This document shows positions 1-39,964 of a stretch of 40,620 bases of DNA, in pieces. Position 1 is the first letter of the stretch, and each line of letters opens with the position of its first letter. The notes under the pieces were generated by a model. The model was not told the DNA's origin. It saw only the letters and a program-made list of their open reading frames with translations, and searched no databases. The position numbers were made by a program, and so were the translations under genes. Source of the DNA: Escherichia coli (GTDB taxonomy: Bacteria; Pseudomonadota; Gammaproteobacteria; Enterobacterales; Enterobacteriaceae); NCBI GenBank assembly GCA_026712415.1, contig GCA_026712415.1_4696.1. One strand, written 5' to 3'.

Positions 1-104
1 AGACGTGCACTGATGGTGAGCGCAAAGAGTTCACCTATTATAAGAAAGATGTAGCGGGTCGCATTGAGATTGCACGTAAGGTTGCAGACAATACGACTCA
101 CTAA
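1..104 (+). CDS. 3' fragment of the 185-aa membrane/coiled-coil protein (duplicate of 40478-40581 from contig wrap-around)
   Basis: Positions 1-143 are identical to 40478-40620; same reading frame and TAA stop (102-104) as ORF 40024-40581. Confidence 0.6.
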   Translation, partial: TCTDGERKEFTYYKKDVAGRIEIARKVADNTTH

Positions 105-111
105 TGGGAGA
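89..111 (+). promoter_or_regulatory. T7-type phage RNAP promoter (phi1.1B-like), overlaps stop codon of upstream ORF
   Basis: CAATACGACTCACTAATGGGAGA, 21/23 match to the T7 consensus, +1 G at 106. Confidence 0.8.
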
Positions 112-122
112 CACTGAAAGTT

Positions 123-160
123 AAACTCAAGGTCATCACATTTGGTGGCCTTCATGATTA
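123..160 (+). promoter_or_regulatory. RNase III processing site (T7 R1.1-like hairpin)
   Basis: AAACTCAAGGTCA...TGGCCTTCATGATT motif, same architecture as T7 R sites. Confidence 0.6.
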
Positions 161-193
161 ACTGTCATTAACTACACAGAAGGAAATAACATT

Positions 194-343
194 ATGCGTA
201 CCAACTTTGAACCAACCACTAAGCGCAACAACGTAAGCAATGAACACGGTGCTGAATGGCAGGAACGTAAAGACCGCATGAAGAAACGCCACAAGACACA
301 ACGTGGCAACGCTGAGAAACGTAACTGGAAGGAGGCACTCTAA
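194..343 (+). CDS. gp1.1-like small basic protein (49 aa)
   Basis: ATG 194 after GGAAAT; basic 49-aa product MRTNFEPTTKRNN... at the position of T7 gene 1.1; stop overlaps next start (TAATG). Confidence 0.55.
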   Translation: MRTNFEPTTKRNNVSNEHGAEWQERKDRMKKRHKTQRGNAEKRNWKEAL

Positions 344-615
344 TGGGTCGCTTATACAGTGGTAACTTAATAGCATATAAAGACGCTATCGAACGACTTA
401 AAGAAGACCACGATGCAAATGTGGTCGTTGAGACTTATCGCTATGAGGACTTCGCACAGCGTCGGATGGTAGCCGGAGAGACACTTCGAGTGACCTTGCG
501 GAATGGCTTAATGCTGACCGCTAAGTGTTTCGAACAGTCAGACGAAGACGTTCGCTGTAATGCACAGACTGAATGGCTCCGTAAGGTTCACAGTGACCTG
601 AAGCACTGGAAGTAA
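343..615 (+). CDS. gp1.2 (host dGTPase inhibitor family)
   Basis: N-terminus MGRLYSGNL matches recalled T7 gp1.2; correct position and size (90 aa). Confidence 0.8.
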   Translation: MGRLYSGNLIAYKDAIERLKEDHDANVVVETYRYEDFAQRRMVAGETLRVTLRNGLMLTAKCFEQSDEDVRCNAQTEWLRKVHSDLKHWK

Positions 616-635
616 TACGACTCACTATTGCGAAA
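613..635 (+). promoter_or_regulatory. T7-type promoter (phi1.3-like), variant initiation region GCGAAA
   Basis: TAATACGACTCACTATTGCGAAA; overlaps gp1.2 stop codon. Confidence 0.65.
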
Positions 636-639
636 GAGT

Positions 640-680
640 TAAACTAAAGGTCATCTTAATGGTGGCCTTTGTGATTAACT
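640..680 (+). promoter_or_regulatory. RNase III processing site (R1.3-like)
   Basis: AAACTAAAGGTCATC...GGTGGCCTTTGTGATTAAC hairpin motif. Confidence 0.6.
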
Positions 681-716
681 TTTGTTTACTTAATAACCAA
701 CAATAGGAGTTCCATC

Positions 717-1748
717 ATGGAAATCACATTCAAGACTAACCCTTTTAAAGCTGTATCCTACGTTGAGTCTGCCATTAAGAAAGCACTCGACAAAGCTGGC
801 TACCTGATTGCTGACACTAAGCATGATGGTGTACGTGGTAACATCGTGGTTGACAATACGGCTGACTGCCTGTGGCTATCCCGCGTCTCCAAGACCATAC
901 CCGCGCTTGAGCACCTTAATGGGTTCGACCAACGCTGGGCTAATGTTCTCAAAGATGACCGCTGGATTTTCCCTGATGGCTTCATGCTGGATGGTGAACT
1001 GATGGTCAAAGGCGTAGACTTCAACACAGGGTCTGGACTACTGAGAACCAAGTGGCTCAAGAAGACAAACTGTGGATTTGATATTGGTGGAGTAGAGCCT
1101 CTCAAGGGGAGTAAAGTAGACTTCTGCTTAGACCCTAAGAAACTTAAGGTTGTCCTGTATGCTGCTATGCCGTATCACGATATGGTAGAAGGCAAAGAGT
1201 ACGGCGTTATGTCCCTCCTGATGCAAGAGCATGTGCGTTCCCTCATTCCGGTTCTTAGTGAACACTTCCCGGAAATCACTTGGGAACTATCTGAGGCCAA
1301 AGAAGTCTACGACATGGTAGAACTTCAGGAACTCTACGAGAAAGCCCGTGCCGATGGTCATGAAGGTCTGGTCGTCAAAGACCCGCTGGAAGTCTACAAG
1401 CGTGGCAAGAAGTCTGGCTGGTGGAAGATGAAGCCTGAGAATGAAGCTGATGGTGTCATCGTTGGACTCAATTGGGGTACTCCGGGTCTGGCTAATGAAG
1501 GTAAAGTGATTGGCTTCGAGGTTCTCTTGGAGTCCGGTCGTGTAGTCTCTGCCAACAACATTAGCCAAGCGTTGATGGATGAGTTCACTGCTGCCGTCAA
1601 ACATGCTGAGTCTGTGGGTATGGGTATGCCGTACACTGGCTTCGCCTGTCAGGTTGCCTACATGGAGGAAACTCCAGACGGCTCTCTGCGTCACCCATCG
1701 TTCGTTATGTTCCGTGGAACTGAGGATAACCCAAAGGAGAAAATGTAA
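717..1748 (+). CDS. ATP-dependent DNA ligase (gene 1.3)
   Basis: 343 aa; KTNPFKAVSYVESAIKKAL, adenylation lysine motif KHDGVRG, and C-terminal DGSLRHPSFVMFRGTEDNPKEKM match recalled T7 ligase. Confidence 0.95.
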   Translation: MEITFKTNPFKAVSYVESAIKKALDKAGYLIADTKHDGVRGNIVVDNTADCLWLSRVSKTIPALEHLNGFDQRWANVLKDDRWIFPDGFMLDGELMVKGVDFNTGSGLLRTKWLKKTNCGFDIGGVEPLKGSKVDFCLDPKKLKVVLYAAMPYHDMVEGKEYGVMSLLMQEHVRSLIPVLSEHFPEITWELSEAKEVYDMVELQELYEKARADGHEGLVVKDPLEVYKRGKKSGWWKMKPENEADGVIVGLNWGTPGLANEGKVIGFEVLLESGRVVSANNISQALMDEFTAAVKHAESVGMGMPYTGFACQVAYMEETPDGSLRHPSFVMFRGTEDNPKEKM

Positions 1749-1930
1749 TGCTTATCTTTGACGAGAACGGTTGGAGAGTGTATCAACACCCACACCTGAT
1801 GATATTCCACATATCAAAGTGGATGGAAGGAGATGACCGGAGAAGCTACGGGAGAACTTGGGACTACTTTACTGTCCATGAGTGCCATAGTATTAAGGAA
1901 GTCAAAGAGTACCTACGAAACAATATGTAA
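1748..1930 (+). CDS. hypothetical protein (gene 1.4 position)
   Basis: 60-aa ORF with start overlapping ligase stop (ATGTAATG); followed by a hairpin plus T-run. Confidence 0.4.
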   Translation: MLIFDENGWRVYQHPHLMIFHISKWMEGDDRRSYGRTWDYFTVHECHSIKEVKEYLRNNM

Positions 1931-1938
1931 AGACAAAT

Positions 1939-1967
1939 GGTCAGTCCTTAACGGGGCTGGCCTTTTT
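1939..1967 (+). terminator. candidate hairpin/T-run terminator (TE-like)
   Basis: GGTCAG...CTGGCC stem (one G-U pair) followed by TTTTT, immediately downstream of the 1.4 ORF. Confidence 0.3.
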
Positions 1968-1973
1968 GCGTTT

Positions 1974-1996
1974 CTATACGACTCACTATGGAGGAA
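1974..1996 (+). promoter_or_regulatory. weak T7-type promoter variant (phi1.5-like)
   Basis: CTATACGACTCACTATGGAGGAA; core CGACTCACTAT conserved, flanks divergent. Confidence 0.5.
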
Positions 1997-2003
1997 CTAC
2001 CTC

Positions 2004-2084
2004 ATGCTATTTCTAATTGCTGCTGCTATCTTTGCCACGTTTGCCTTCGTTATCATTGACGACAACTGCTGGCCGGATTGCTAA
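2004..2084 (+). CDS. small hydrophobic peptide (26 aa, gene 1.5 position)
   Basis: GGAGG RBS 8 nt upstream of ATG 2004; product MLFLIAAAIFATFAFVIIDDNCWPDC. The longer 1833-2084 ORF spans a hairpin and a promoter and is probably not real. Confidence 0.4.
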   Translation: MLFLIAAAIFATFAFVIIDDNCWPDC

Positions 2085-2105
2085 TACGACTCACCTATGG
2101 AGGAC
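2083..2105 (+). promoter_or_regulatory. T7-type promoter variant (phi1.6-like)
   Basis: TAATACGACTCACCTATGGAGGA; upstream half perfect, initiation region divergent. Confidence 0.55.
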
Positions 2106-2111
2106 ACAACT

Positions 2112-2375
2112 ATGTTAAGACTTCACTTCAACAAATCTAATGGCATCTTCTCTGCGCGTGGCGCTGACCGCTCTACTGTTCTGGCCTCTGAGAAACACGC
2201 AGTCATCCCTAAAGTGCTTGGCTCGACCATTGAGTTAGCACCTCGTGTTCACGCTGTAATCACCACTGGCTTATATAAAGAAGCGACCACTGGCTCCCGG
2301 CCTTTCATTCCGGTTCTCGTCACCCGTTTTCCTAAAGTCCGTCTGGTAATTGCACGTATCAAGGAGGTGTTCTAA
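2112..2375 (+). CDS. gp1.6-like hypothetical protein
   Basis: ATG 2112 with GGAGGA RBS; alternative in-frame ATG at 2097 lies inside the promoter/RBS; 87 aa. Confidence 0.6.
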   Translation: MLRLHFNKSNGIFSARGADRSTVLASEKHAVIPKVLGSTIELAPRVHAVITTGLYKEATTGSRPFIPVLVTRFPKVRLVIARIKEVF

Positions 2376-2686: not shown

Positions 2687-2777
2687 ACCTAGCGAATGGT
2701 GTGAGCGTATGTTTGAAAAGACAGGCAACACCGACTACCTTGAATTATATAATCACTGGAAGGAGAGAGGACAATGA
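2679..2777 (+). CDS. gp1.8-like small protein (32 aa)
   Basis: Short ORF translationally coupled to gp1.7 and gp2 (stop overlaps gp2 start). Confidence 0.35.
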
Positions 2778-2965
2778 GCACTCTGAATAAAGGGTCACTG
2801 GTAAACGGTGACAAGAAGTTCTTCGCTACGGTAGAAGGCCAAGGCCAATCGTTCGAAGTACCTGTGTTCGCTACGTCTCTTGAAGAGGCCAATGAGTTAG
2901 CTGAGTGGCAATACGTCCCTGCTGGCTTCGCTGTAACACGCATCCGTCCAGACCGTAAGGTTTAA
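2774..2965 (+). CDS. gp2, inhibitor of host RNA polymerase
   Basis: 63 aa; ...[33 protein letters not shown] matches recalled T7 Gp2. Confidence 0.9.
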
Positions 2966-2985
2966 TAGGACTCACTAATGGGAGA
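2963..2985 (+). promoter_or_regulatory. T7-type promoter (phi2.5-like)
   Basis: TAATAGGACTCACTAATGGGAGA. Confidence 0.75.
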
Positions 2986-3032
2986 CACAGCGTTTCCCAC
3001 TTTTAACTTTCAGAAACTAAAGGAGAATCATT

Positions 3033-4629: not shown

Positions 4630-4633
4630 TACT

Positions 4634-4726
4634 ATGATGATTATTCACGAGATGGGCCTGTATGATTTGATTTATCGCCTCGCATTCATGCTGGCAATGG
4701 TCTACATTCTGACCCGCAAGGATTAA
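4634..4726 (+). CDS. small hydrophobic ORF (30 aa)
   Basis: MMIIHEMGLYDLIYRLAFMLAMVYILTRKD; weak evidence, position of gene 3.8. Confidence 0.3.
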   Translation: MMIIHEMGLYDLIYRLAFMLAMVYILTRKD

Positions 4727-4745
4727 TAGAACTCACTATGGGAGG
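4724..4745 (+). promoter_or_regulatory. T7-type promoter variant (phi3.8/4-like)
   Basis: TAATAGAACTCACTATGGGAGG (one base shorter than the consensus spacing). Confidence 0.6.
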
Positions 4746-4796
4746 ACCGAAAGGTTTCTCCCTTTGTTCGCTAAAATTGTATAAGGAGTAACCACT

Positions 4797-6748
<1,952 letters not shown>

Positions 6749-6750
6749 AT

Positions 6751-6773
6751 CAATACAACTCACTAATGGGACA
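6751..6773 (+). promoter_or_regulatory. T7-type promoter (phi4.3-like)
   Basis: CAATACAACTCACTAATGGGACA. Confidence 0.7.
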
Positions 6774-7582: not shown

Positions 7583-7605
7583 CTATTCAACTCACTAATG
7601 GGAGA
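7583..7605 (+). promoter_or_regulatory. T7-type promoter (phi4.7-like)
   Basis: CTATTCAACTCACTAATGGGAGA; divergent upstream half. Confidence 0.6.
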
Positions 7606-11846: not shown

Positions 11847-11869
11847 CAATACGACTCACTATTGAGAGG
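11847..11869 (+). promoter_or_regulatory. T7-type promoter (phi6.5-like)
   Basis: CAATACGACTCACTATTGAGAGG. Confidence 0.7.
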
Positions 11870-12854: not shown

Positions 12855-14462
12855 ATGGCAAGCTCACAGAAACGTGAAGGCTTCGCTGAGAATGGTGCCA
12901 AGGCGGTGTATGACGCATTGAAGAACGACCGGAACTCCTATGAGACCCGTGCGGAAAACTGTGCGAAGTACACCATCCCTTCGTTGTTCCCTAAAGACTC
13001 CGACAACGCCTCTACTGACTACACCACTCCGTGGCAAGCAGTTGGCGCTCGTGGCTTGAACAACTTGGCCTCTAAGCTCATGCTCGCTCTGTTCCCTATG
13101 CAGACGTGGATGAAGCTGACCATCTCTGAGTTCGAAGCGAAACAATTGGTTGCACAGCCAGCCGAACTAGCGAAGGTCGAAGAAGGTCTCTCAATGGTCG
13201 AGCGAATCTTGATGAACTACATCGAGTCCAACTCGTACCGTGTGACACTCTTTGAGACCCTCAAGCAGTTGGTCGTTGCAGGTAACGCTCTGCTCTACAT
13301 TCCTGAACCTGAAGGTACTTACAATCCCATGAAGCTATACCGCCTGTCTTCTTATGTTGTCCAACGAGACGCATTCGGCACGGTGCTACAGATTGTAACC
13401 TTAGATAAGACTGCCTATGCAGCACTTCCAGAAGACGTTCGAAACTCTATGGACTCCGGTCAGGAACATAAAGGCGACGAAATGATTGATGTGTACACTC
13501 ACATTTATCTTGCCGAAGAATCTGGTGAGTACCTCAAGTACGAAGAGATTGATGGTGTTGAAGTCGATGGTACAGATGCTTCTTATCCGGTGGACGCTTG
13601 TCCTTATATCCCGGTTCGCATGGTACGCATTGATGGAGAATCATATGGTCGTTCTTACTGTGAGGAATACTTAGGTGACTTACGGTCCCTTGAGAACCTC
13701 CAAGAAGCTATCGTTAAGATGTCAATGATTAGTGCTAAAGTTATTGGCTTGGTTAACCCGGCTGGTATCACACAGGTTCGTCGTTTGACCAAAGCACAGA
13801 CTGGTGACTTCGTGTCTGGTCGTCCAGAAGACATCTCGTTCCTTCAGCTTGAAAAGGCCGCAGACTTCTCTGTAGCGAAAGCTGTGAGTGAACAGATTGA
13901 GGGCCGACTGTCCTATGCCTTTATGTTGAACTCCGCTGTGCAACGCACTGGTGAGCGTGTGACTGCCGAAGAGATTCGATATGTTGCATCTGAACTCGAA
14001 GATACCCTTGGTGGTGTCTATTCGATTCTCTCACAGGAACTTCAGTTGCCAATGGTTCGTGTCCTGCTGAAGCAACTTCAAGCGACCAATCAGATTCCTG
14101 AGCTACCGAAAGAGGCCGTTGAGCCTACTATCAGTACCGGGATGGAAGCACTGGGTCGTGGTCAAGACCTCGATAAGCTGGAACGTTGTATTGCTGCTTG
14201 GTCTGCTCTTGCTCCTATGCAGAATGACCCGGACATCAACATTGCGACCATTAAGTTGCGCATTGCGAACGCTATCGGCATCGACACTTCCGGTATCCTT
14301 AAGACACCTGAAGAGAAACAACAGGAGATGGCTGAGGCTGCACAGGGTACGGCTATGGAGAACGCTGCTGCGTCTGCTGGTGCTGGTGCTGGTGCACTTG
14401 CCACTGCAAGCCCTGAGAACATGCAAGCGGCTGCTGAACAGGCTGGAATGGTTCCAAATTAA
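12855..14462 (+). CDS. head-to-tail connector / portal protein (gene 8)
   Basis: 535 aa; long conserved blocks (PWQAVGARGLNNLASKLMLALFPMQTWM, GESYGRSYCEEYLGDLRSLENLQEAIVKMSMIS) match recalled T7 gp8. Confidence 0.97.
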   Translation: MASSQKREGFAENGAKAVYDALKNDRNSYETRAENCAKYTIPSLFPKDSDNASTDYTTPWQAVGARGLNNLASKLMLALFPMQTWMKLTISEFEAKQLVAQPAELAKVEEGLSMVERILMNYIESNSYRVTLFETLKQLVVAGNALLYIPEPEGTYNPMKLYRLSSYVVQRDAFGTVLQIVTLDKTAYAALPEDVRNSMDSGQEHKGDEMIDVYTHIYLAEESGEYLKYEEIDGVEVDGTDASYPVDACPYIPVRMVRIDGESYGRSYCEEYLGDLRSLENLQEAIVKMSMISAKVIGLVNPAGITQVRRLTKAQTGDFVSGRPEDISFLQLEKAADFSVAKAVSEQIEGRLSYAFMLNSAVQRTGERVTAEEIRYVASELEDTLGGVYSILSQELQLPMVRVLLKQLQATNQIPELPKEAVEPTISTGMEALGRGQDLDKLERCIAAWSALAPMQNDPDINIATIKLRIANAIGIDTSGILKTPEEKQQEMAEAAQGTAMENAAASAGAGAGALATASPENMQAAAEQAGMVPN

Positions 14463-14482
14463 TACGACTCACTAATGGGAGA
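14460..14482 (+). promoter_or_regulatory. T7-type promoter (phi9-like), overlaps portal stop
   Basis: TAATACGACTCACTAATGGGAGA; transcript begins with a GGGAG...CTCCC hairpin. Confidence 0.85.
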
Positions 14483-15453: not shown

Positions 15454-15476
15454 TAATACGACTCACTATTGGGAGA
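15454..15476 (+). promoter_or_regulatory. T7-type promoter (phi10-like), best consensus copy
   Basis: TAATACGACTCACTATTGGGAGA, 22/23 match to the T7 consensus. Confidence 0.9.
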
Positions 15477-16897: not shown

Positions 16898-17488
16898 ATG
16901 CGTTCCTATGAAACAACCCTAGAGACAGGCGAAGAGTTGGCTGCGGTCAATGACATCTTGGCCTCTATCGGTGAACCGCCAGTCTCCACTTTGGAGGGTG
17001 ACTCTAACGCCGATGTTGCCAACGCCCGTCGAGTTCTCAATAAGATTAACCGACAGATTCAGTCTAAGGGCTGGACGTTCAACATTGAGGAAGGTCAGCA
17101 GTTGCTGCCTGATGTGTTCAACGGATTGATTCCCTATATGTCTGACTACCTGTCCGTACTGTCTGAAGGAGGCGCGACCGCTTACGTTAACCGTGGTGGT
17201 TACGTCTATGACCGGACTACAGGAACCGATGTGTTCCAGAACCCTATCACTGTGACCATCATTAAACTGAGAGAGTTCTACGAGATGCCTGAATGCTTCC
17301 GCTTCTGGATTGTAACTAAAGCTGCCCGTCAGTTTAACAACAGGTTCTTCGGTGCACCTGAGATTGACGCTGTGTTGGCTGAAGAAGAACAGGAAGCGAA
17401 GATGCAGTGTCACGAGTACGAACTTGACTTCGGTAACTTCAACATGCTTGATGGTGATGCCTTCACTGGTGGTCTGCTGTCTCGTTAA
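16898..17488 (+). CDS. tail tubular protein A (gene 11)
   Basis: [35 protein letters not shown]... matches recalled T7 gp11; AGGAGGA RBS (ORF-track start 16844 lies in the terminator and is rejected). Confidence 0.95.
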
Positions 17489-17715
17489 TAACTTAAGGAG
17501 GTCTCTAATGGCTCTTATTTCACAATCCGTCAAGAACCTGAATGGCGGTATCAGTCAACAGCCGAACATCTTAAGGTTCCCCGAACAGGGTTCCGAACAG
17601 ATTAACGGTTGGTCTTCGGAGACTGAGGGTCTTCAGAAGCGTCCACCTTTTGTCTTCACTAAGACCATTGGAGACCAGAATGCCCTTGGTACAAAACCGC
17701 TCATCCATTTAATCA
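17401..17715 (+). repeat. tandem direct repeat, copy 1 (315 bp; gp11 3' end, RBS, first 208 nt of gp12)
   Basis: 313/315 identical to 17716-18030; differences at 17543 (T vs G) and 17572 (T vs C). Confidence 0.95.
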
Positions 17716-20228: not shown

Positions 20229-20251
20229 CAATACGACTCACTATTGGGGAG
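20229..20251 (+). promoter_or_regulatory. T7-type promoter (phi13-like)
   Basis: CAATACGACTCACTATTGGGGAG. Confidence 0.8.
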
Positions 20252-21313: not shown

Positions 21314-23593
21314 ATGAGTAAGTTAGCTCAAGCATTGGGTAGCATGAATGCTCCGACTACCAGTCGTCTGCGTGGCACTGGTCGTATGGAAGTTAAGGCC
21401 GCAGCAGTCTATGAAGACCCTAAGTATGCCAAGAAGTCCGCACTGATTGGGACTGTGGGTAAACTTGCTGAGATGGGTGCGGATGCCTATATGAAGTATG
21501 ACCAGCACCAGAAGGACAAGGCAGACGAACGCTCAAACGAGATTATTCGTAAGCTGACTCCTGAACAACGCCGAGAGGCCATTAAGAATGGAACCCTGTT
21601 ATATCAGGACGACCCATACGCAATGGAAGCACTTAAGGTGAAGACTGGTCGTAACGCTGCGTATCTCGTTGATGACGAGGTAGCACAGAAGGTTAAGAAC
21701 GGTGAGTTCCGAACCCGTCAAGAGATGGAAGAGTTTCGTCATAGTCGCCTACAGGAATCCGCTAAGAATTATGCTGAACAGTTTGGTATCGACGAGACCG
21801 ATGAGCACTACCAGAAGGGATTCAACTCTGACATCACCGAGCGTAACATTGCTCTCTATGGCGCTCATGATAACTTCCTGAGTGACCAAGCTAAGAAGGG
21901 TGCTGTCATCAACAGTCGCGTAGAGTTGAACTCCGTGTTGAACGACCCGGAAACCCTGCGCTCTCCGCATGCTGGTGAGTTCTTTGAGAACTACTTCAGT
22001 GCCGGATTGACTACAGGAAGTATCCCTAGTGATGACCAAGCGTTCACAATGATTAGCCAAGGTCTCTCTGACGTGGTTAACCGTGAGGGCGGTGGTCAGT
22101 TCCTGCAACAGATTGAGAACCGAAAGGTAAAACTGCATGGCAAGGAGACTACCTTCAAGGAACTGATGGGTGCCGAACAGTGGAACAATCTGATGGTTAA
22201 GGCTCAACATAATGAGTTCCAGTTGAATGCTAAGAAGACCGAGGCGTTCCAACTTAATGTGAACTCTGCGTTGAACCAAGAGAACGTGAACACTGGCTGG
22301 GAACAGTTGCAATCCATAAAAGCTGAACTGGACACACTGCAACCGGGCGAAGAGATGACACCTGAACGTCAGGCGTTAATCAATGCACAGACGCAGATGC
22401 AGGACAGGATGAAGCTGGAGACCGCTGAGTTAGCCAAGCAGATGGACAAGCAACAGAAGTCGATGAACAAGATGAACGTCATTGACGCACAGTTCCAGAA
22501 GCGGCTCAATGGTCAGTATGTGTCTACTGCGTATGGCGATATGCCTACCAACGAGAACACTGGTGAGTTCACCCATAGTGACATGGTTAACTATGCGAAC
22601 AAGAAGCTGGCTGACATTGACGCTATGGACATCCCTGATGCACAGAAGGACCGCATGAAGTTGGACTACCTCAAGGCTGACTCCGAGAAGGGCGCTTTCC
22701 GTACTGCGGTTGGTGAACTGATTGGTGACGCTGAGAAGGAATGGACGTCCGCTGTGATTAACGGGAAGATGCCAGAAGATGGTGGTGTGGCTCTTAATGC
22801 CCTGCGACGTGTTCGTAATGCTGACCCTGAGTTATTCGCTGCACTCTATCCTGATAAAGCCGAGATGTTCCTCACTATGGACATGATGGACAACCAAGGG
22901 ATTGACCCGCAGATTCTCTTAGATGCGGATAAGGCTCGTAAGTCTCTTACCAAAGAGATGCAGTACGAGGATGACAAGGCGTGGACTTCCCTGAAGAACA
23001 ACTCCGAGTCTCCTGAACTGTCCCGTATGCCAGCTACATTGGATGCAGGTGCTCGTAAGATTTATGACTCCGTTAAGTACCGCACAGGTAATGCTGATTC
23101 GGCAATGCAACAGGTCGATAAGTATCTCAAAGAGAACACAACGACTCTCACTGCTGATGACGTTGATGGTGATACCATTGGTGTCTTGACGAGAAACTCT
23201 TTGCGTGTGACTGATGACCCGGACTCTTGGAAACAAGGTAAGGACATTATCGACACAGCCGCTAAGAAACTCGCTGAGACTAACCCTTGGGTTACTAACA
23301 AGCAACTCATTGTGTTCGAGCGTGGTGACTCTATCTACCTGATGGACACGACCGGACAGGTAAACATTCGGTATGACAAGCAGTTGCTCTCTAAGATGTA
23401 TCAAGAGAACCAAGCGAAGCTGGATGAGGAAGCCCGTAATAAGGCACTCAAAGATGCCAACAAGCGAACCCTACATACACGAGCTATGAACCGCAAGCGT
23501 GAACGTGAAGCTAAGAAGCCTAAGCGCTCTGGCAGCATGTACGATAGCGTGAGTGGCAAAGGTATTCTGGATACGCTGACTGGTAAAGACTAA
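21314..23593 (+). CDS. internal virion protein B (gene 15)
   Basis: 759 aa; DERSNEIIRKLTPEQRREA...YQDDPYAMEALKVKTGRNAAYLVDDEV matches recalled T7 gp15. Confidence 0.93.
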   Translation: MSKLAQALGSMNAPTTSRLRGTGRMEVKAAAVYEDPKYAKKSALIGTVGKLAEMGADAYMKYDQHQKDKADERSNEIIRKLTPEQRREAIKNGTLLYQDDPYAMEALKVKTGRNAAYLVDDEVAQKVKNGEFRTRQEMEEFRHSRLQESAKNYAEQFGIDETDEHYQKGFNSDITERNIALYGAHDNFLSDQAKKGAVINSRVELNSVLNDPETLRSPHAGEFFENYFSAGLTTGSIPSDDQAFTMISQGLSDVVNREGGGQFLQQIENRKVKLHGKETTFKELMGAEQWNNLMVKAQHNEFQLNAKKTEAFQLNVNSALNQENVNTGWEQLQSIKAELDTLQPGEEMTPERQALINAQTQMQDRMKLETAELAKQMDKQQKSMNKMNVIDAQFQKRLNGQYVSTAYGDMPTNENTGEFTHSDMVNYANKKLADIDAMDIPDAQKDRMKLDYLKADSEKGAFRTAVGELIGDAEKEWTSAVINGKMPEDGGVALNALRRVRNADPELFAALYPDKAEMFLTMDMMDNQGIDPQILLDADKARKSLTKEMQYEDDKAWTSLKNNSESPELSRMPATLDAGARKIYDSVKYRTGNADSAMQQVDKYLKENTTTLTADDVDGDTIGVLTRNSLRVTDDPDSWKQGKDIIDTAAKKLAETNPWVTNKQLIVFERGDSIYLMDTTGQVNIRYDKQLLSKMYQENQAKLDEEARNKALKDANKRTLHTRAMNRKREREAKKPKRSGSMYDSVSGKGILDTLTGKD

Positions 23594-28063: not shown

Positions 28064-28086
28064 CAATACGACTCACTATTGGGAAG
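28064..28086 (+). promoter_or_regulatory. T7-type promoter (phi17-like)
   Basis: CAATACGACTCACTATTGGGAAG; transcript 5' hairpin GGGAAG...CTTCCC. Confidence 0.8.
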
Positions 28087-28134: not shown

Positions 28135-30060
28135 ATGGCTAACAAAATTTCCACTGTACGTACTTACCCGCTGAACGGTGCCGTGAACTTCACGATTACC
28201 TTTGAGTATTTAGCACGTAAGTTCGTCCAAGTGACACTCATCGGGAAAGACCGTAAAGAGTTGGTTCTCAATCAGGACTATCGCTTTACCACTAAGACCC
28301 AAATCACAACCTCCCGTGCGTGGACTGCTGCCGATGGTTATCAGATGATTGAGATTCGTCGATTCACTTCTGCAACCGACCGTCTGGTTGACTTTGCTGA
28401 TGGCTCAATCCTTCGTGCGTATGACCTTAACATCTCACAGATTCAGACGCTGCACGTAGCTGAAGAGGCACGAGACCTAACTGCGGATACCATTGGTGTC
28501 AACAATGATGGTCACTTGGATGCCCGTGGTCGTAAGATTGTGAACCTAGCGTTCGCTACCAGTGACTACGATGCTGTCCCTCTGAAGCAAGTAAAAGAGC
28601 GCGAGTCGTCTGCTTGGAACGCTGTTAACAAGGCCAATGAACACGCTAACCGCTCTAACACTGAGGCTAACCGATCGCGAGATGAAGCTGACCGTGCAAA
28701 ACGTGAAGCTGACCGCTCAACCCAACAGGCAGGTGTCTCTACGGCACAGGCGGTTGAGTCCAAGAAGCAAGCTGACCGTTCCAACTCTGAGGCTAACCGA
28801 GCTAAAGGTTATGCTGATAGTATGACCGCAAGTGTAGCTGAGGCCAAGAAGCAAGCTGACCGTTCTAACTCTGAGGCCAATCGTGCCCGTGATGAGGCCA
28901 ATCGTGCTGCCGGAGAAGTGACTAAGGCTGCTGCTGAGGTTGCCAAAGCCGCTGCACACGTTGCTACCGCTGATGGACATGCTGACAGAGCCAACACTGA
29001 GGCAAACCGCTCCAAGAGTGAAGCTGACCGTGCAAAGACCGAGGCTGACAAGTTAGGGAATATGAATAACTTAGCGGGAACCATTAAAGCGGTTAATGGT
29101 GAGAACGTTGTTTTTAAGAATGATGTTGTAGCACCCGGACAGATTACTGGTGAAAAGGAAGTAAGGGCTGGCGCAGGTCAATCGTTTAGCGTGTTAACAA
29201 GGAACTCGTTGCAGCTTGTGAACCAGAACTTCGCTGATAGAAATATGAGGTTCTTCGTATGGGGGAATGACCAAGGACGTGCAAACGTATTTGAGTTAGG
29301 TGGTAGCGGTAATGGGTACTATATGTATATCCAGAAGGCTAACCTTAACGACACATTTTGCCAGATGCGAGTGAATGGACATATGGAGGCTGCTGGTGGG
29401 CTTACGGTTGGACAATCAGGTGACTTCACTGGAATCTTACAGACTCGCTCACAGAACCTGCTGATGATTAACTCTGCTCGTCGACATATTCAAATGAAAA
29501 CCAGCGATAACTACACCGATGGTTATCTTTACAAAGACCCCGGCGCTGGGGCGTGGAGGCTTAACTTTGGTCAGGCAGCTAACAGGGAGTATACGTTTGA
29601 TTCAAATGGTACATTAACATCCAACTCAGGCTGGTACATTCCACCAGATGGTAACTTATACATCACGAAGTATGATTCTTACATCGACGGTTGGGTCAAC
29701 AAACGCCTTGGAGAACATGCCTACAATAAAAGCGAAGTAAACAACCTAGTCAATGGACGGTTAACTCAAGCGCAAGCTGATGGTCGATACGTCAATAAGA
29801 ATGCTGGGTGGGCTGAGGTCTGGAAAGGCTCTGCTGGTGGTGGTGTCTCGGTAGGTCTCTCACAGGATGTTCGTTGGAGAACCATCTGGATTCAGACCAA
29901 TGGTCGCTGGAACGCCGTTCCTATTGGTGACAATGCGGCTTACTTCATCTCGTCTGATGGTGGTTGGTTGAAGTTCACAATCTCCAACAACGGCAGAACT
30001 TTCCGTAACGACCAAGCCTACCGTTCAGTCCCTACGCGAATCTTAGTTCAAAACCAATAA
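28135..30060 (+). CDS. tail fiber protein (gene 17)
   Basis: 641 aa; N-terminal tail-attachment domain (FEYLARKFVQVTLIG...DGSILRAYDLN) and C-terminal tip (VWKGSAGGGVSV...YFISSDGGWL) match recalled T7 gp17; central region carries ADRSNSEANRA-type repeats. Confidence 0.93.
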   Translation: MANKISTVRTYPLNGAVNFTITFEYLARKFVQVTLIGKDRKELVLNQDYRFTTKTQITTSRAWTAADGYQMIEIRRFTSATDRLVDFADGSILRAYDLNISQIQTLHVAEEARDLTADTIGVNNDGHLDARGRKIVNLAFATSDYDAVPLKQVKERESSAWNAVNKANEHANRSNTEANRSRDEADRAKREADRSTQQAGVSTAQAVESKKQADRSNSEANRAKGYADSMTASVAEAKKQADRSNSEANRARDEANRAAGEVTKAAAEVAKAAAHVATADGHADRANTEANRSKSEADRAKTEADKLGNMNNLAGTIKAVNGENVVFKNDVVAPGQITGEKEVRAGAGQSFSVLTRNSLQLVNQNFADRNMRFFVWGNDQGRANVFELGGSGNGYYMYIQKANLNDTFCQMRVNGHMEAAGGLTVGQSGDFTGILQTRSQNLLMINSARRHIQMKTSDNYTDGYLYKDPGAGAWRLNFGQAANREYTFDSNGTLTSNSGWYIPPDGNLYITKYDSYIDGWVNKRLGEHAYNKSEVNNLVNGRLTQAQADGRYVNKNAGWAEVWKGSAGGGVSVGLSQDVRWRTIWIQTNGRWNAVPIGDNAAYFISSDGGWLKFTISNNGRTFRNDQAYRSVPTRILVQNQ

Positions 30061-31118: not shown

Positions 31119-31676
31119 ATGGCTACTACAAACTCAAGAACCCGCACACTATGGACCATCAATGGTCGCTCGCCAGACAGTCGTGATGTGTATGACCTCA
31201 ACAATATTGGTATTCGTGTTGGGCGTATCGACATCCCAGCTTCGGAGATGGTTAAGGTAGAGGGGTACTCTAAGGTTGAATACGTTGTTCAACTTAGCGA
31301 TGGCACCACTGAGCAACATGCTACGTTCGAGACCCTTATGTCCACTTGGGGTGGCTCCGTCGAGTCTAAACCGGGTAGCGGGTTCATGACGGTGTTCCTG
31401 AATGAGCAAAGCGCTGAGCGACTCGGTATGGTTCGAATCGACGTATACAAAGAGTGGACTGGTGCTGACCCTGAACCTGAAGGTGGTATGGCTTCCTTAG
31501 TTGGTGCAACGCTTTCTGCGTCTGATAGTGAATTTGGTACACAGTTCGTGGACAGCGAAGGGAAGAGCGCTTCCGTTATGTTCCAACCTAGTAACATCGA
31601 CGGGGCTGTATCTAAGACCGACACTATCAAGGCTCTAGAGAAGCGCATTGCTGCCTTAGAGAAACCTGCCAAGTAA
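31119..31676 (+). CDS. hypothetical accessory protein (185 aa) between spanin and terminase genes
   Basis: Strong RBS AAGGAGAAATAATATG; no recognisable motif; T7, as recalled, has no gene here. Confidence 0.7.
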   Translation: MATTNSRTRTLWTINGRSPDSRDVYDLNNIGIRVGRIDIPASEMVKVEGYSKVEYVVQLSDGTTEQHATFETLMSTWGGSVESKPGSGFMTVFLNEQSAERLGMVRIDVYKEWTGADPEPEGGMASLVGATLSASDSEFGTQFVDSEGKSASVMFQPSNIDGAVSKTDTIKALEKRIAALEKPAK

Positions 31677-33536: not shown

Positions 33537-33559
33537 TAATACGACTCACTATTGGGAAG
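33537..33559 (+). promoter_or_regulatory. T7-type promoter (phiOR-like)
   Basis: TAATACGACTCACTATTGGGAAG. Confidence 0.8.
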
Positions 33560-33962: not shown

Positions 33963-34405
33963 CCTTATGTACCCTCTATGGTCTACAGGGTCTCTTAGGG
34001 TCTCTCACGTAGTCTCACCTTATGATATAGCCTCTGTGGTTAACCTTATGAGACTTGATGTACCCCTTTAAGAATCCTACAGAAAAATCTGAGTGAGTAT
34101 CTCATAGTTCATAAACACCGAGTCCCCCCCCCTATGGCCTCCTTCAGTCCACCCAAAGAGCCTTCCTCTATGGTAACTCATGGTTTACCTGAAGTCAATC
34201 CTTTTGTGAGACATTGGGTTAACTCTAGGTGTAACCACTAGATATGGTGCTTAGTGATACCTTATGACCACTATATGTAGTCCTCTCTGTGTCCCTATCT
34301 GTAAGTGACCCTAGAGTTATCACCTTATGTCACCTCCTTATGTCTATCCTTATGGCTGCCTATCCTTATGTTAACCTTCAGTCAGTGCCTTATGTTTATC
34401 AGTGA
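33963..34405 (+). repeat. dispersed CCTTATG heptamer repeats (9 copies) flanking the predicted genome terminus, analogous to the T7 CCTAAAG end repeats
   Basis: Copies at 33963, 34018, 34044, 34260, 34334, 34347, 34359, 34375, 34399; five are clustered at 12-24 bp spacing. Confidence 0.7.
34100..34330 (+). other. predicted physical left end of the packaged genome and collapsed direct terminal repeat (extent approximate)
   Basis: TCTCATAGTTCA...CCCCCCCCC at 34100 resembles the recalled T3/T7 left terminus (TCTCA...); lies between gene 19.5 and the early promoters. Confidence 0.4.
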
Positions 34406-34888: not shown

Positions 34889-34918
34889 TTGACAAGTAGC
34901 AACAACAAGATGTAAGAT
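34889..34918 (+). promoter_or_regulatory. host sigma70 early promoter (A3-like)
   Basis: -35 TTGACA, 18-bp spacer, -10 TAAGAT (same hexamers as T7 A2). Confidence 0.7.
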
Positions 34919-35034
34919 GTACGACATAACGTTCTTGTGAAGTCCTACACTGAAAGGGACTCGGTGCTAACAAACCTGCACTTAAAGCTCTTTAACAATT
35001 TGGTGACAATAGCACTCTTGAGATGGCGGCACTA

Positions 35035-35082
35035 GCGATTAACTCAAGGTGACTCGAAAGAGAAGCCTTTATGATAATCACT
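35035..35082 (+). promoter_or_regulatory. RNase III processing site (R0.3-like)
   Basis: TTAACTCAAGGTGACTCGAAAGAGAAGCCTTTATGATAATCAC. Confidence 0.6.
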
Positions 35083-35106
35083 GTAACCAACATCGAGGCA
35101 ATCATC

Positions 35107-35565
35107 ATGATTCACACTAAAGAGCAAGCTAATGTTTTCTATGTACTGGTAAGCGCATTCCGTTCTAACCTCGACGATGAGGTCAACATGAGTCGCCACC
35201 GCCACATGGTTAACAACCTGCGCAACGCACCGGGTCTTTATGGTAGCGTTGAGTCTACCGATTTAACTGGCTGTTACCGCGAAGCCATCTCAAGTGCACC
35301 AACTGAAGAGAAAACAATCCGTGTACGTTGTAAAGACAAGGCACAGGTTCTCAATGTCGCACGTCTGGCATGTAATGAGTGGGAACAAGATTGCGTGCTG
35401 GTCTATAAATCACAGACTCACACGGCTGGCTTAGTGTACGCTAAAGGCATCGACGGGTACAAAGCTGAACGTCTACATGGTAGCTTCCAAGAAGTCCCAC
35501 GCACCGAGGCACTGAAAGGCTGCTTCACTATTGATGAGTTCGGTCGCCGCTGGCAAGTACAGTAA
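35107..35565 (+). CDS. S-adenosylmethionine lyase ('SAMase', T3 gene 0.3 type anti-restriction protein)
   Basis: 152 aa from ATG 35107; near-identical over most of its length to recalled T3 SAMase (NVFYVLVSAFRSNL...GSVESTDLTGCYREAISSAPTEEKT...CFTIDEFGRRWQVQ). ORF-track start 35071 lies inside the RNase III hairpin. Confidence 0.9.
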   Translation: MIHTKEQANVFYVLVSAFRSNLDDEVNMSRHRHMVNNLRNAPGLYGSVESTDLTGCYREAISSAPTEEKTIRVRCKDKAQVLNVARLACNEWEQDCVLVYKSQTHTAGLVYAKGIDGYKAERLHGSFQEVPRTEALKGCFTIDEFGRRWQVQ

Positions 35566-35567
35566 GT

Positions 35568-35615
35568 GATAAACTCAAGGTCGCTCAATATGAGTGGCCT
35601 TTCATGATTATCATT
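35568..35615 (+). promoter_or_regulatory. RNase III processing site
   Basis: GATAAACTCAAGGTCGCTCAATATGAGTGGCCTTTCATGATTATC. Confidence 0.6.
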
Positions 35616-35638
35616 TAACATGCAATAGGACTAACACC

Positions 35639-35839: not shown

Positions 35840-35883
35840 TGGCGCGATTTGCACGCACTGGACAATAGCCTTTTAGTCTAACC

Positions 35884-35930
35884 AGTGATAAACTCAAGGT
35901 CGCTCCTAGCGAGTGGCCTTTATGATTATC
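35884..35930 (+). promoter_or_regulatory. RNase III processing site (R0.5-like)
   Basis: GATAAACTCAAGGTCGCTCCTAGCGAGTGGCCTTTATGATTATCAC, near-identical to recalled T7 R0.5. Confidence 0.7.
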
Positions 35931-35960
35931 ACTTTTGAAACAACGCACGGGATTAATATC

Positions 35961-36098: not shown

Positions 36099-36123
36099 AT
36101 CTAACTAAATAGGACACAATCTA

Positions 36124-37209: not shown

Positions 37210-37211
37210 TA

Positions 37212-37255
37212 AGGTGTATCTTCAAGGTCGGCACTGACTGCTGGCCTTTATAGAT
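37212..37255 (+). promoter_or_regulatory. RNase III processing site (R1-like)
   Basis: Hairpin GGTCGGCACTGACTGCTGGCC between the kinase and RNAP genes. Confidence 0.5.
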
Positions 37256-37282
37256 AAACTTTCTTAACAACGTGAGGCAACA

Positions 37283-39934
37283 ATGACTAACGTAATCAAC
37301 GCACCAAAGAACGACTTCTCTGACATCGCTAACGCAATCATGCCATACAACATTCTGGCTGACCATTACGGCGCACAGCTTGCAGCTACGCAGTTACAGC
37401 TTGAGCACGAAGCGCACACCGAAGGCGAGAAGCGTTTTCTTAAGGCAATGGAACGTCAAATCAAAGCGGGTGAGTTCGGTGATAACGCAGTGGCTAAACC
37501 GCTCCTGTCATCTCTCGCACCGAAGTTTATCGAGGCGTGGAACGATTGGTTCACTGAAGTGGAAGCGAAGCGTGGCAAGCGTCCAGTAGCCTACAATCTG
37601 GTACAGAAGGTTGCACCTGAAGCTGCTGCATTTATCACACTGAAGGTCACACTCGCTTGCTTGACGAAAGAAGAGTTCACCAACCTGCAATCGGTCGCCA
37701 CTAAGATTGGTCGCAGTATTGAGGATGAACTGCGTTTTGGTCGCATCCGTGACGAAGAAGCGAAGCACTTTAAGAACCACGTACAGGAGGCACTGAACAA
37801 GCGCGTTGGTATCGTCTACAAGAAAGCATTCATGCAAGCTGTAGAAGGCAAGATGCTTGATGCTGGTCAACTGCAAACCAAGTGGACCACATGGACACCT
37901 GAAGAATCAATTCACGTTGGTGTGCGCATGTTGGAACTGCTCATTGGGTCTACTGGTCTCGTTGAGTTACACCGCCCGTTCGCTGGGAACATCGAGAAGG
38001 ATGGCGAGTACATCCAACTGACCGAACAATACGTTGACCTGTTATCTAAACGTGCTGGTGCACTGGCTGCAATCGCTCCAATGTATCAGCCTTGCGTGGT
38101 CCCACCTAAGCCTTGGACTTCTCCGGTCGGTGGTGGCTATTGGGCTGCTGGTCGCAAGCCTCTCTCTCTGGTTCGCACTGGTAGCAAGAAGGGACTTGAG
38201 CGTTACAACGATGTGTACATGCCTGAAGTTTACAAGGCCGTGAACATCGCACAGAATACTCCTTGGAAGATTAACAAGAAGGTTCTGGCAGTGGTCAACG
38301 AGATTGTGAACTGGAAGCATTGCCCGGTTGAAGATGTACCCGCTCTGGAACGTGGAGAACTCCCGGTCAAACCTGATGACATCGACACGAACGAAGCGGC
38401 TCTGAAAGCGTGGAAGAAAGCGGCCTCCGCAATCTACCGCAAAGAGAAGGCACGAGTGTCACGCCGCATGAGCATGGAGTTCATGTTAGGTCAGGCCAAT
38501 AAGTTCGCACAGTTCAAAGCTATCTGGTTCCCAATGAACATGGACTGGCGCGGTCGTGTGTATGCTGTGCCGATGTTTAACCCGCAAGGCAACGACATGA
38601 CCAAAGGCTTGCTGACGTTGGCTAAAGGTAAACCAATCGGTGTCGATGGGTACTACTGGCTGAAGATTCACGGTGCTAACACTGCTGGCGTGGACAAGGT
38701 GGACTTTGCAGAACGCATCAAGTTCATTGATGACAACCATGAGAACATCATGAGCGTTGCGGCTGACCCGATTGCTAACACTTGGTGGGCCGAGCAAGAT
38801 TCTCCGTTCTGCTTCCTCGCGTTCTGCTTCGAGTATACAGGTGTGCAACACCACGGGATGAACTACAACTGCTCTCTTCCGCTGGCGTTCGATGGTAGCT
38901 GCTCCGGTATTCAGCACTTCTCCGCGATGCTCCGTGATGAGATTGGTGGTCGTGCGGTTAACCTGCTGCCAAGCAAAGAGGTACAAGACATCTACCGCAT
39001 CGTAGCGGAACGTGTCAACGAGATTCTGAAGCAAGATGTAATAAATGGCACCGACAACGAAGTCGAAACCGTGACCAATAAGGACACAGGGGAAATCACT
39101 GAGAAGCTCAAGCTGGGCACGAAGGAACTGGCTGGTCAATGGTTAGCATACGGTGTTACTCGTAAGGAGACTAAGCGTTCCGTTATGACCTTGGCGTATG
39201 GTTCCAAAGAGTATGGCTTCCGTGACCAAGTGCTAGAGGATACAATTCAGCCAGCTATCGACGATGGCAAGGGCTTGATGTTCACTCAACCGAACCAAGC
39301 GGCTGGCTACATGGCTAAACTGATTTGGAACGCGGTAACGGTGACAGTGGTCGCTGCGGTTGAAGCAATGAACTGGCTGAAGTCTGCTGCTAAACTGCTG
39401 GCTGCTGAAGTCAAGGACAAGAAGACAAAAGAGGTTCTGCGCAAACGCTGTGCGGTACATTGGGTTACTCCTGATGGCTTCCCGGTCTGGCAGGAATACA
39501 AGAAGCCAGTACAGACACGCTTGAACCTGATGTTCTTAGGCCAGATTCGTCTACAGCCTACCGTGAACACCAACAAGGATAGCGGAATTGATGCTCGTAA
39601 GCAGGAGTCAGGCATCGCACCTAACTTTGTCCACTCAATGGATGGTAGCCACCTGCGCATGACTGTGGTCCGCTCCAATGAGGTCTACGGTGTGGAATCG
39701 TTCGCACTGATTCACGACTCCTTTGGTACTATCCCTGCTGATGCTGGCAACCTGTTTAAAGCAGTGCGTGAAACGATGGTCAACACTTACGAAGAGAACG
39801 ATGTACTTGCAGACTTCTATGAGCAATTTGCTGACCAGTTGCACGAATCACAGCTTGACAAGATGCCTGAGATGCCAGCTAAAGGTTCTCTGGACCTGCA
39901 AGAAATCCTTAAGTCAGACTTTGCGTTTGCCTAA
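37283..39934 (+). CDS. single-subunit DNA-directed RNA polymerase (gene 1)
   Basis: 883 aa (same as T7 RNAP); catalytic and specificity-loop regions conserved; loop reads ...QPTVNTNKDSGIDARKQESGIAPNF with the T7-type Asn at the base-reading position. Confidence 0.98.
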   Translation: MTNVINAPKNDFSDIANAIMPYNILADHYGAQLAATQLQLEHEAHTEGEKRFLKAMERQIKAGEFGDNAVAKPLLSSLAPKFIEAWNDWFTEVEAKRGKRPVAYNLVQKVAPEAAAFITLKVTLACLTKEEFTNLQSVATKIGRSIEDELRFGRIRDEEAKHFKNHVQEALNKRVGIVYKKAFMQAVEGKMLDAGQLQTKWTTWTPEESIHVGVRMLELLIGSTGLVELHRPFAGNIEKDGEYIQLTEQYVDLLSKRAGALAAIAPMYQPCVVPPKPWTSPVGGGYWAAGRKPLSLVRTGSKKGLERYNDVYMPEVYKAVNIAQNTPWKINKKVLAVVNEIVNWKHCPVEDVPALERGELPVKPDDIDTNEAALKAWKKAASAIYRKEKARVSRRMSMEFMLGQANKFAQFKAIWFPMNMDWRGRVYAVPMFNPQGNDMTKGLLTLAKGKPIGVDGYYWLKIHGANTAGVDKVDFAERIKFIDDNHENIMSVAADPIANTWWAEQDSPFCFLAFCFEYTGVQHHGMNYNCSLPLAFDGSCSGIQHFSAMLRDEIGGRAVNLLPSKEVQDIYRIVAERVNEILKQDVINGTDNEVETVTNKDTGEITEKLKLGTKELAGQWLAYGVTRKETKRSVMTLAYGSKEYGFRDQVLEDTIQPAIDDGKGLMFTQPNQAAGYMAKLIWNAVTVTVVAAVEAMNWLKSAAKLLAAEVKDKKTKEVLRKRCAVHWVTPDGFPVWQEYKKPVQTRLNLMFLGQIRLQPTVNTNKDSGIDARKQESGIAPNFVHSMDGSHLRMTVVRSNEVYGVESFALIHDSFGTIPADAGNLFKAVRETMVNTYEENDVLADFYEQFADQLHESQLDKMPEMPAKGSLDLQEILKSDFAFA

Positions 39935-39941
39935 CGGAATC

Positions 39942-39964
39942 TAATACGACTCACTATTGGGAGC
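39942..39964 (+). promoter_or_regulatory. T7-type promoter (phi1.1A-like) with transcript 5' UUCG hairpin
   Basis: TAATACGACTCACTATTGGGAGC; +1 G at 39959 begins the hairpin GGGAGCC-UUCG-GGCUUCC (39959-39976). Confidence 0.85.

Follow-up and report, generated by a model that had tools for sequence, protein, structure and literature searches.

A Berlinvirus promoter set with T at position -1, encoded alongside a T7-type RNA polymerase

The 40,620-nt stretch of DNA analysed here (the window) is a complete, circularly permuted genome of a Berlinvirus, a T7-relative phage group. It carries a 23-bp promoter with the consensus TAATACGACTCACTA(A/T)TGGGAGA. These sites are very probably the class II and class III promoters of the phage, plus phiOL and phiOR, read by the phage's own T7-type RNA polymerase. 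T at -1 is an already known genus trait: this is the standard Berlinvirus promoter and is not peculiar to the window.

Genome assignment

High whole-genome identity to accepted members (~96% to Enterobacter phage PZJ0206 and ~94% to BA14) and a gene order as in BA14 place the window in Berlinvirus. A 24.9-kb query from the window matches PZJ0206 over 100% of its length at 96.4% identity, and 285P and BA14 at about 94-95%. Across the rest of the genome, the part that matches in a single place is 96.1% identical to PZJ0206. Positions 1-143 are identical to 40478-40620, an assembly overlap of 143 nt. An Rfam scan of the whole window returned no family above threshold.

The initial annotation described the proteins as T3-like. 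This holds for a few accessory genes that are T3-only or closer to T3 (the 0.3 SAM hydrolase at 87%, 1.05, 1.1, 1.2 and 5.5), of which 0.3, 1.05 and 1.1 are held in common with T3, but it does not hold for the core proteins, which are equally far from T7 and T3. Other genes are T7-only or T7-closer (4.7, a 0.6-like ORF, 5.9, 1.7 and 13). A recombinant T3 genome with T7 promoters was rejected on the equidistance of the core proteins and the match of the whole genome to Berlinvirus. To judge from sequence comparison, this is a lineage separate from both T3 and T7, and not a T3 body carrying T7 promoters.

The promoter set and its relatives

A position weight matrix (PWM) was built from the promoter sites and both strands were scanned, with promoters called at 21 bits or more. 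The scan found 17 plus-strand sites, namely those in Table 1 and one at 40566. Because the latter merely repeats site 89 through the 143-nt end overlap, there are 16 unique promoters within 89-39964, all on the plus strand, the number first claimed. The highest minus-strand score was 8.6 bits (36191-36169), which we judged to be chance. Allowing up to 3 mismatches, a consensus search gave 11 plus-strand matches, and none in 100 shuffles; the core ACTCACTAWTG, for which up to 1 mismatch was allowed, occurs 16 times versus 1.9 expected. As is characteristic of the T7 group (Studiervirinae), copies of the ~23-bp element recur on the transcribed strand ahead of middle and late genes, and each of the 16 precedes a T7-homologous gene or gene block.

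Table 1. Promoters and RNA polymerase segments in the window
Feature	Sequence	Position	Strand	Evidence and context
phi1.1	CAATACGACTCACTAATGGGAGA (-17 to +6)	89..111	+	PWM 37.9 bits; orthologue annotated in BA14 at 6270-6292; repeated at 40566-40588 in the overlap
phi1.3	TAATACGACTCACTATTGCGAAA	613..635	+	consensus and PWM; upstream of ligase gene; RNase III-type hairpin in leader
phi1.5	CTATACGACTCACTATGGAGGAA	1974..1996	+	30.2 bits; spacing one base shorter, in-register -1 is G; form shared by BA14 and PP74
phi1.6	TAATACGACTCACCTATGGAGGA	2082..2104	+	21.4 bits; CTAT replaces TAWT; identical to annotated BA14 phi1.6
phi2.5	TAATAGGACTCACTAATGGGAGA	2963..2985	+	consensus and PWM; 5' stem of leader from +1
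phi3.8	TAATAGAACTCACTATGGGAGGA	4724..4746	+	26.8 bits; spacing one base shorter
phi4.3	CAATACAACTCACTAATGGGACA	6751..6773	+	consensus and PWM
phi4.7	CTATTCAACTCACTAATGGGAGA	7583..7605	+	core motif and PWM
phi6.5	CAATACGACTCACTATTGAGAGG	11847..11869	+	consensus and PWM
phi9	TAATACGACTCACTAATGGGAGA	14460..14482	+	consensus and PWM
phi10	TAATACGACTCACTATTGGGAGA	15454..15476	+	39.0 bits (top score); upstream of capsid gene
phi13	CAATACGACTCACTATTGGGGAG	20229..20251	+	core motif and PWM
phi17	CAATACGACTCACTATTGGGAAG	28064..28086	+	consensus and PWM
phiOR	TAATACGACTCACTATTGGGAAG	33537..33559	+	consensus and PWM; near right genome end
phiOL	TAATGCGACTCACTATTGAGGAA	34535..34557	+	core motif and PWM; near left genome end
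phi1.05	TAATACGACTCACTATTGGGAGC	39942..39964	+	consensus and PWM; directly 3' of gene 1
Gene 1, single-subunit RNA polymerase, 883 aa		37283..39934	+	identity 99% to BA14, 76% to T7, 75% to T3
AT-rich recognition loop codons	EAKRGKRPV	37562..37588	+	T7 residues 93-101 are KAKRGKRPT
Intercalating hairpin region codons	HRPFAGNIEKDGEYIQ	37970..38017	+	polymerase alignment
Specificity-loop codons, residues 739-770		39497..39592	+	N748 at 39524-39526; R746, R756, Q758 T7-type

Could the copies be chance repeats or an assembly artefact rather than promoters? One of the 17 (40566) is indeed an artefactual duplicate. However, the shuffles, the two-strand PWM scan and the annotation of the orthologous BA14 sites refute this reading, the sites lie strictly on the plus strand and are intergenic or at gene ends, and the orthologues in fPS-54-ocr are annotated too. 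We therefore regard it as extremely improbable.

Read in the T7 register, the -1 base is T at 14 of the 16 sites and G at two, and the probability of at least 14 T by base composition is 2e-7. T (10 sites) or A (6 sites) occupies -2, and +1 is always G (16/16). Positions -4 to -1 read TAWT in 13 cases, TATG in two and CTAT in one; this is the A/T-rich melting segment typical of Studiervirinae, with a purine, usually G, as the start. GACT stands at -11 to -8 in 12 of the 15 tabulated sites. The description of -1 T as fixed is correct for the base before the first G (16/16), but in strict register it applies to 14. At phi1.5 and phi3.8, which read CACTATGG, T still precedes the first G; CACTA and the G run stand one base closer together there, which means a different start or a different -1 base. 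phi1.6 reads CACCTATGG. The promoters with degenerate initiation regions, first ascribed to early genes, actually belong, as in T7, to class II (middle-gene) or are origin or replication-end promoters.

Hairpins at the 5' end, said to begin many transcripts, are real in about 8-9 of the 16 leaders, where they correspond to stem-loops and RNase III sites known from T7/T3. GGGA...UCCC 5' stems in several leaders are common to T7 and the window, and RNase III-type hairpins just after phi1.1 and phi1.3 are common to T3 and the window.

The promoter form carries little weight as a discovery, having been annotated in 2008, drawn as logos, listed in a review and used in vitro. Orthologous sites with the same sequences are annotated as phage promoters in the BA14 record (GenBank EU734171, 2008), and logos for Berlin and Kvp1 appear in the Kvp1 paper (PMC2579914). 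A review gives the Kvp1 promoter as AATACGACTCACTATT (PMC11617373). The RNA polymerase of the Berlinvirus PP74 was active on TAATACGACTCACTATTGGGAA in cell-free and in vitro transcription assays (PMC11475235); the supplement to that paper does not name the non-cognate promoters tested. The same form occurs in PP74, PZJ0206 and the Helsettvirus fPS-54-ocr. ACTCACTAWTG is found 13 times in BA14, 14 in PZJ0206, 13 in PP74 and 8 in 25 kb of fPS-54-ocr, versus none in T7 and T3. Conversely, ACTCACTAWAG, with the T7-type -1 A, occurs 14 times in T7 and is absent from the window, BA14, PZJ0206, PP74 and the 25 kb of fPS-54-ocr.

Berlinvirus members (BA14, 285P, PZJ0206, PP74, Kvp1 and Berlin) share the 23-bp consensus of the window, the full set of promoters at the same gene positions (all those named in Table 1) and the phi1.5, phi1.6 and phi3.8 variants. 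The differences are single bases, mostly at +2 to +6 and -17 to -11, although PP74 has an additional site before gene 11 that the window does not have. Orthologous promoters of the window, BA14 and PP74 were compared in 16 sets, PP74 being represented in 15. Within these sets the bases at -10 to -3, -1 and +1 are invariant, that at -2 switches between A and T in two sets, and those at +2 to +6 vary. Although it belongs to a different genus, fPS-54-ocr has promoters that read ACTCACTATTG in 8/8 cases in the 25 kb examined, with only T, and no A, at -2.

The consensus of the T7 class II/III promoters (TAATACGACTCACTATAGGGAGA) is identical to that of the window from -17 to -3 and from +1 to +6, and both have T or A at -2. 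The -1 base differs, being T at 14/16 window sites and A at 16/17 T7 sites. T3 promoters (AATTAACCCTCACTAAAGGGAGA) share the CTCACTA core and GGGAGA start with the window, but differ from it at -12 to -10 (CCC, against CGA in the window) and at -1 (A or C, against T). With up to 3 mismatches, no T3-type promoter (ACCCTCACTAAAGGGAGA) was found in the window, which bears out the observation that none of the sites resembles one. Together with Asn rather than Asp at polymerase residue 748, this sets the genome apart from Teetrevirus (T3-like).

The RNA polymerase and its predicted reading of the promoters

As expected of Studiervirinae, the genome encodes a cognate RNA polymerase, 76% identical to that of T7 over its full length. 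Its specificity residues match the -11 to -8 bases, following the T7 pairing of N748, R756 and Q758 with GACT. The roles and base contacts of these residues are described in PMC5937735 and PMC11880802. The T7-type Asn noticed initially is borne out by alignment, which gives N748 (Asp in T3) with R746, R756 and Q758, all as in T7, and no T3-type loop; these residues fit the CGACT element of the promoters. The peptide quoted for the Asn was the wrong one: TVNTNKDSGIDARKQ covers residues 760-774, and the discriminating Asn precedes it by 14 residues, within QTRLNLMFLGQIRLQ. The fPS-54-ocr polymerase is 83% identical to that of the window and has the same specificity residues.

The polymerase encoded at 37283-39934 would read all of these promoters. 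Their upstream element from -17 to -5 (TAATACGACTCAC) equals the T7 consensus and would be bound by the conserved AT-rich recognition loop and by the specificity loop with R746, N748, R756 and Q758. The A/T-only segment TA(A/T)T at -4 to -1 would then melt, and RNA synthesis probably initiates with GTP, the first G of GGGAGA being +1. Since +1 was assigned from the T7 register, the exact start nucleotide is a predicted one. The -1 T is the form of the melting and initiation segment fixed in the Berlinvirus and Helsettvirus lineage; T7 has A at this position and T3 has A or C.

Outside the specificity residues, the polymerase has diverged. The intercalating hairpin differs from that of T7, and carries clade-specific differences from T7, T3 and K11 (Q232P, G238E, Q239K and T243Y). 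Further clade-specific substitutions are F755I, H772R and Q786M. In all, 69 alignment columns, spread over the whole polymerase, hold residues that are common to the clade with -1 T and absent from T7, T3 and K11.

Possible reasons for T at -1

So, why T? Among papers on T7 that might bear on substitutions at -1, PMC6395800 randomised only -12 to -7, PMC11880802 concerns the binding region, and the accessible portions of PMC5937735 do not address -1 effects. The -1 T could be a true specificity determinant, the Berlinvirus and Helsettvirus polymerases having co-evolved, for example via the intercalating hairpin, to need it. Promoters of the T7 type with -1 A would then be poor templates for these polymerases, and vice versa, and transcription would be insulated despite an identical binding element. 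All of the four genomes keep the -1 T with no exceptions, whereas the adjacent -2 base alternates between A and T among orthologues, and the clade-specific residues include four in the hairpin that opens the promoter, with F755I, H772R and Q786M elsewhere. On the other hand, the 69 clade-specific residues are too many to be assigned from the alignment, which ties none of them to -1 T, and in T3 both A and C are found at -1, pointing to flexibility of the position in relatives. T7 polymerase itself naturally uses phi2.5, the one T7 promoter with -1 T, whose start is A, which suggests by analogy that the position can be tolerant. On balance, we consider a specificity role unlikely.

The narrower proposal, that -1 T co-evolved with the diverged intercalating hairpin of the Berlinvirus and Helsettvirus polymerases, so that these and T7 polymerase tell apart promoters with an identical binding element, seems to us slightly less probable again. 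If true, it would be a natural orthogonality between polymerases encoded outside the specificity loop. Should the -1 base help to discriminate T7 from Berlinvirus polymerases, synthetic biology would gain a means of orthogonality that lies outside the recognition bases at -12 to -8.

Alternatively, -1 T may be a neutral founder variant, inherited with the promoters, with no functional preference over A and retained only since the promoters within a genome all follow a single polymerase. With ~14 independent copies per genome and 6-20% divergence, neutrality would predict some -1 A; there is none, yet -2 flips. This leaves neutral inheritance a possible, if somewhat doubtful, explanation, with which two observations are in keeping: the -1 base stays A/T, so that melting is preserved, and it differs among T7-like groups without any other change in architecture.

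Phage promoters in the window and its relatives

Searched with the promoter consensus of the initial annotation (TAATACGACTCACTAWTGGGAGA, ≤3 mismatches), the window gave 11 matches, all on the + strand, and 100 dinucleotide-preserving shuffles gave none. The core ACTCACTAWTG, allowing 1 mismatch, was matched 16 times in the window against 1.9 expected. A weight matrix made from the promoter sites themselves and scanned over both strands recovered 17 + strand sites (21-39 bits), one of which (TAATACGACTCACCTATGGAGGA) was found by this approach only, and the top minus-strand score was 8.6 bits. Because the two ends of the window are identical, the sites at 89 and 40566 represent one stretch of DNA. 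Counting the pair as one leaves 16 unique promoters, all between 89 and 39964, exactly the count originally proposed.

In T7 register, the -1 base is T in 14 of the 16 promoters and G in two (binomial P for ≥14 T = 2e-7), the -2 base is T in ten and A in six, and the +1 base is always G. The two exceptions (CACTATGG) are shorter by 1 base, so the first G is still preceded by T in 16/16. The fixed -1 T thus holds at every site when counted from the first G, and at all but two in register. No window site carries the T7-type A at -1, and no T3-type promoter occurs with ≤3 mismatches, as had been noted.

The BA14 record (EU734171) annotates phiOL, 1.05, 1.1, 1.3, 1.5, 1.6, 2.5, 3.8, 4.3, 4.7, 6.5, 9, 10, 13, 17 and OR, with the CACTA(A/T)TGGGAGA form seen in the window. 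Its short phi1.5 and phi3.8 variants and its CACCTATGG phi1.6 are identical in kind to those of the window, and PP74, classified in Berlinvirus, has the same promoter set. ACTCACTAWTG (T at -1) occurs 13 times in BA14, 14 in PZJ0206, 13 in PP74 and 8 in the 25 kb examined of Helsettvirus fPS-54-ocr, each with 0 occurrences of ACTCACTAWAG (A at -1); the respective counts are 0 and 14 in T7, and 0 and 2 in T3. In IMG/VR, 54 stretches match ATACGACTCACTAWTGGGA exactly, nearly all on ~38-41 kb contigs and two on short metagenome contigs. The Kvp1 paper presents promoter logos and names phage Berlin as having the promoters nearest to those of Kvp1 (PMC2579914), and a 2024 review gives the Kvp1 promoter as AATACGACTCACTATT (PMC11617373). 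Among 26 enzymes tested, that of PP74 had the highest activity, with TAATACGACTCACTATTGGGAA as its promoter (PMC11475235). The feature is the standard Berlinvirus/Helsettvirus promoter, already known from previous annotation and use.

In PP74, a further promoter-like site precedes gene 11 (22382-22404, TCGTGTGACTCACTAATGGGAGG) and recalls T3 phi11; the weight matrix found no window counterpart between 15454 and 20229.

A Berlinvirus genome, circularly permuted

Comparison of the RNA polymerase gene and a 24.9-kb stretch with Berlinvirus phages gave nucleotide identities of 96.4-96.8% to Enterobacter phage PZJ0206, ~95-97% to 285P and ~94-95% to BA14, whose gene order the window matches gene for gene. 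The window is circularly permuted and starts within the gene 1.05/phi1.1 region. The location of its identical 143-nt ends in that region excludes them as natural termini. A single match to the BA14 terminal repeat elsewhere in the window marks the natural genome ends and makes the 143-nt repeat an assembly overlap. The true terminal repeat is collapsed in this assembly.

Coordinates of features in the window
Feature	Position
Identical 143-nt ends	1-143, 40478-40620
Promoter recovered by weight matrix only	2082-2104
Promoters shorter by 1 base	1974, 4724
Gene 1	37283-39934
Match to BA14 terminal repeat	~34100-34296
315-nt tandem duplication	17400-17714, 17715-18029
Gene 16 (internal virion protein D)	23617-28062
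Gene 17 (tail fibre)	28135-30060
Direct repeats within gene 17	28631-29049
185-aa ORF	31119-31676
Family D8 repeats	35024-35090, 35555-35620, 35874-35940
D8-like hairpins in phi1.1 and phi1.3 leaders	115-167, 634-683

The proteins had been described as T3-like. When every + strand ORF was compared with T7, T3 and BA14 by tblastn, core proteins proved equally distant from T7 and T3: DNA polymerase (74% identity to both), portal (80% T7, 83% T3), capsid (78%, 79%), terminase (80%, 80%) and the 883-aa RNA polymerase (76%, 75%, and 99% to BA14 gp1). The description fits a few T3-only or T3-closer genes, namely the 0.3 SAM hydrolase (87%), 1.05, 1.1, 1.2 and 5.5; 4.7, a 0.6-like ORF, 5.9, 1.7 and 13 are T7-only or T7-closer. 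A T3 backbone was rejected, given this equidistance and the Berlinvirus lineage of the genome.

The tandem duplication (313/315 identical) runs from the gene 11 3' end through the intergenic ribosome-binding site into gene 12, of which it includes the first ~69 codons. BA14 has one copy of the unit. The gene 12 frame is open across both copies (916-949 aa ORF vs 795 aa in PZJ0206), and the duplication could be real or an assembly artefact. Among the large genes, gene 17 has diverged most (74% aa identity to BA14, 38-39% to T7/T3). Its direct repeats are spaced by multiples of 21 nt (126, 84, 126, 21), and the gene is likely to be a host-range module whose shaft is repetitive. Gene 16 encodes 1481 aa in the window and PZJ0206 vs 1315 aa in BA14, and no single tblastn alignment with BA14, T7 or T3 covers more than 46% of the ORF, suggesting that a segment has been inserted or rearranged. 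The 185-aa ORF between genes 18.5 and 19 corresponds to nothing in T7 or T3; BA14 has an ORF with 94% identity to it, annotated 'unknown product'.

RNA polymerase and the T at -1

By alignment, the specificity loop (YKKPVQTRLNLMFLGQIRLQPTVNTNKDSGIDARKQ) contains R746, N748, R756 and Q758 (T7 numbering), which two papers describe as contacting promoter positions -11 to -8 (PMC5937735, PMC11880802). T3 polymerase, in contrast, has Asp at 748. The presence of these residues makes the proposed match of a T7-type Asn to CGACT correct, but N748 lies upstream of the peptide quoted for it, which comprises residues 760-774. Conservation is also seen in the AT-rich recognition loop (EAKRGKRPV vs KAKRGKRPT in T7). 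The intercalating hairpin carries Q232P, G238E, Q239K and T243Y relative to T7, T3 and K11, changes common to all four polymerases of the Berlinvirus and Helsettvirus clade with T at -1. A further 65 clade-specific columns lie elsewhere in the polymerase, and the alignment linked the -1 base to none of the clade-specific columns. Most likely, the polymerase binds -17 to -5 via its conserved loops, would then melt the A/T-only segment TA(A/T)T, and would initiate with GTP at the first G.

The window, BA14 and PP74 were compared in 16 orthologous promoter sets (PP74 in 15). Positions -10 to -3, -1 and +1 never differ; in two sets, -2 is A in some genomes and T in others, and +2 to +6 are variable. 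This sequence comparison points to constraint on the -1 T in this lineage. The polymerase may prefer T at -1; stringency is argued for by a statement in the PP74 paper that altering one nucleotide of a non-cognate promoter, unnamed in the available text and supplement, abolished output. Alternatively, the T may be a frozen variant that is tolerated, as argued by T at -1 in T7 phi2.5 and A or C in T3. The initial observation is confirmed, and its interpretation is partly supported.

Initiation regions and leader hairpins

GGGAGA is intact at phi1.1, 2.5, 4.7, 9 and 10, nearly intact (GGGAAG, GGGAGC or GGGGAG) at phi13, 17, OR and 1.05, and degenerate at phi1.3, 1.5, 1.6, 3.8, 4.3, 6.5 and OL, a pattern shared with the class II promoters and phiOL of T7. 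Folding of +1 to +36 predicts stable stems from +1 for phi1.05, 2.5, 3.8, 4.3, 9 and 17 (z -1.9 to -4.1) and a weaker one for phiOL (z = -1.7), like the GGGAGA...UCCC stems of T7 phi3.8, phi10 and phi17. The phi1.1 and phi1.3 leaders form bipartite hairpins instead, resembling the sites for RNase III that the T3 annotation places immediately downstream of the same promoters. The suggestion that many transcripts begin with a hairpin therefore holds for ~8-9 of the 16 leaders; such hairpins are a known T7-group trait.

A repeat family, D8 (AGTGATAAACTCAAGGTCGCTC...GAGTGGCCTTT), folds as bipartite hairpins (z = -2.2 to -5.8), and the leaders of phi1.1 and phi1.3 contain similar ones. No Rfam family matches the D8 hairpins, which resemble the early-region RNase III processing sites of T7 and T3.
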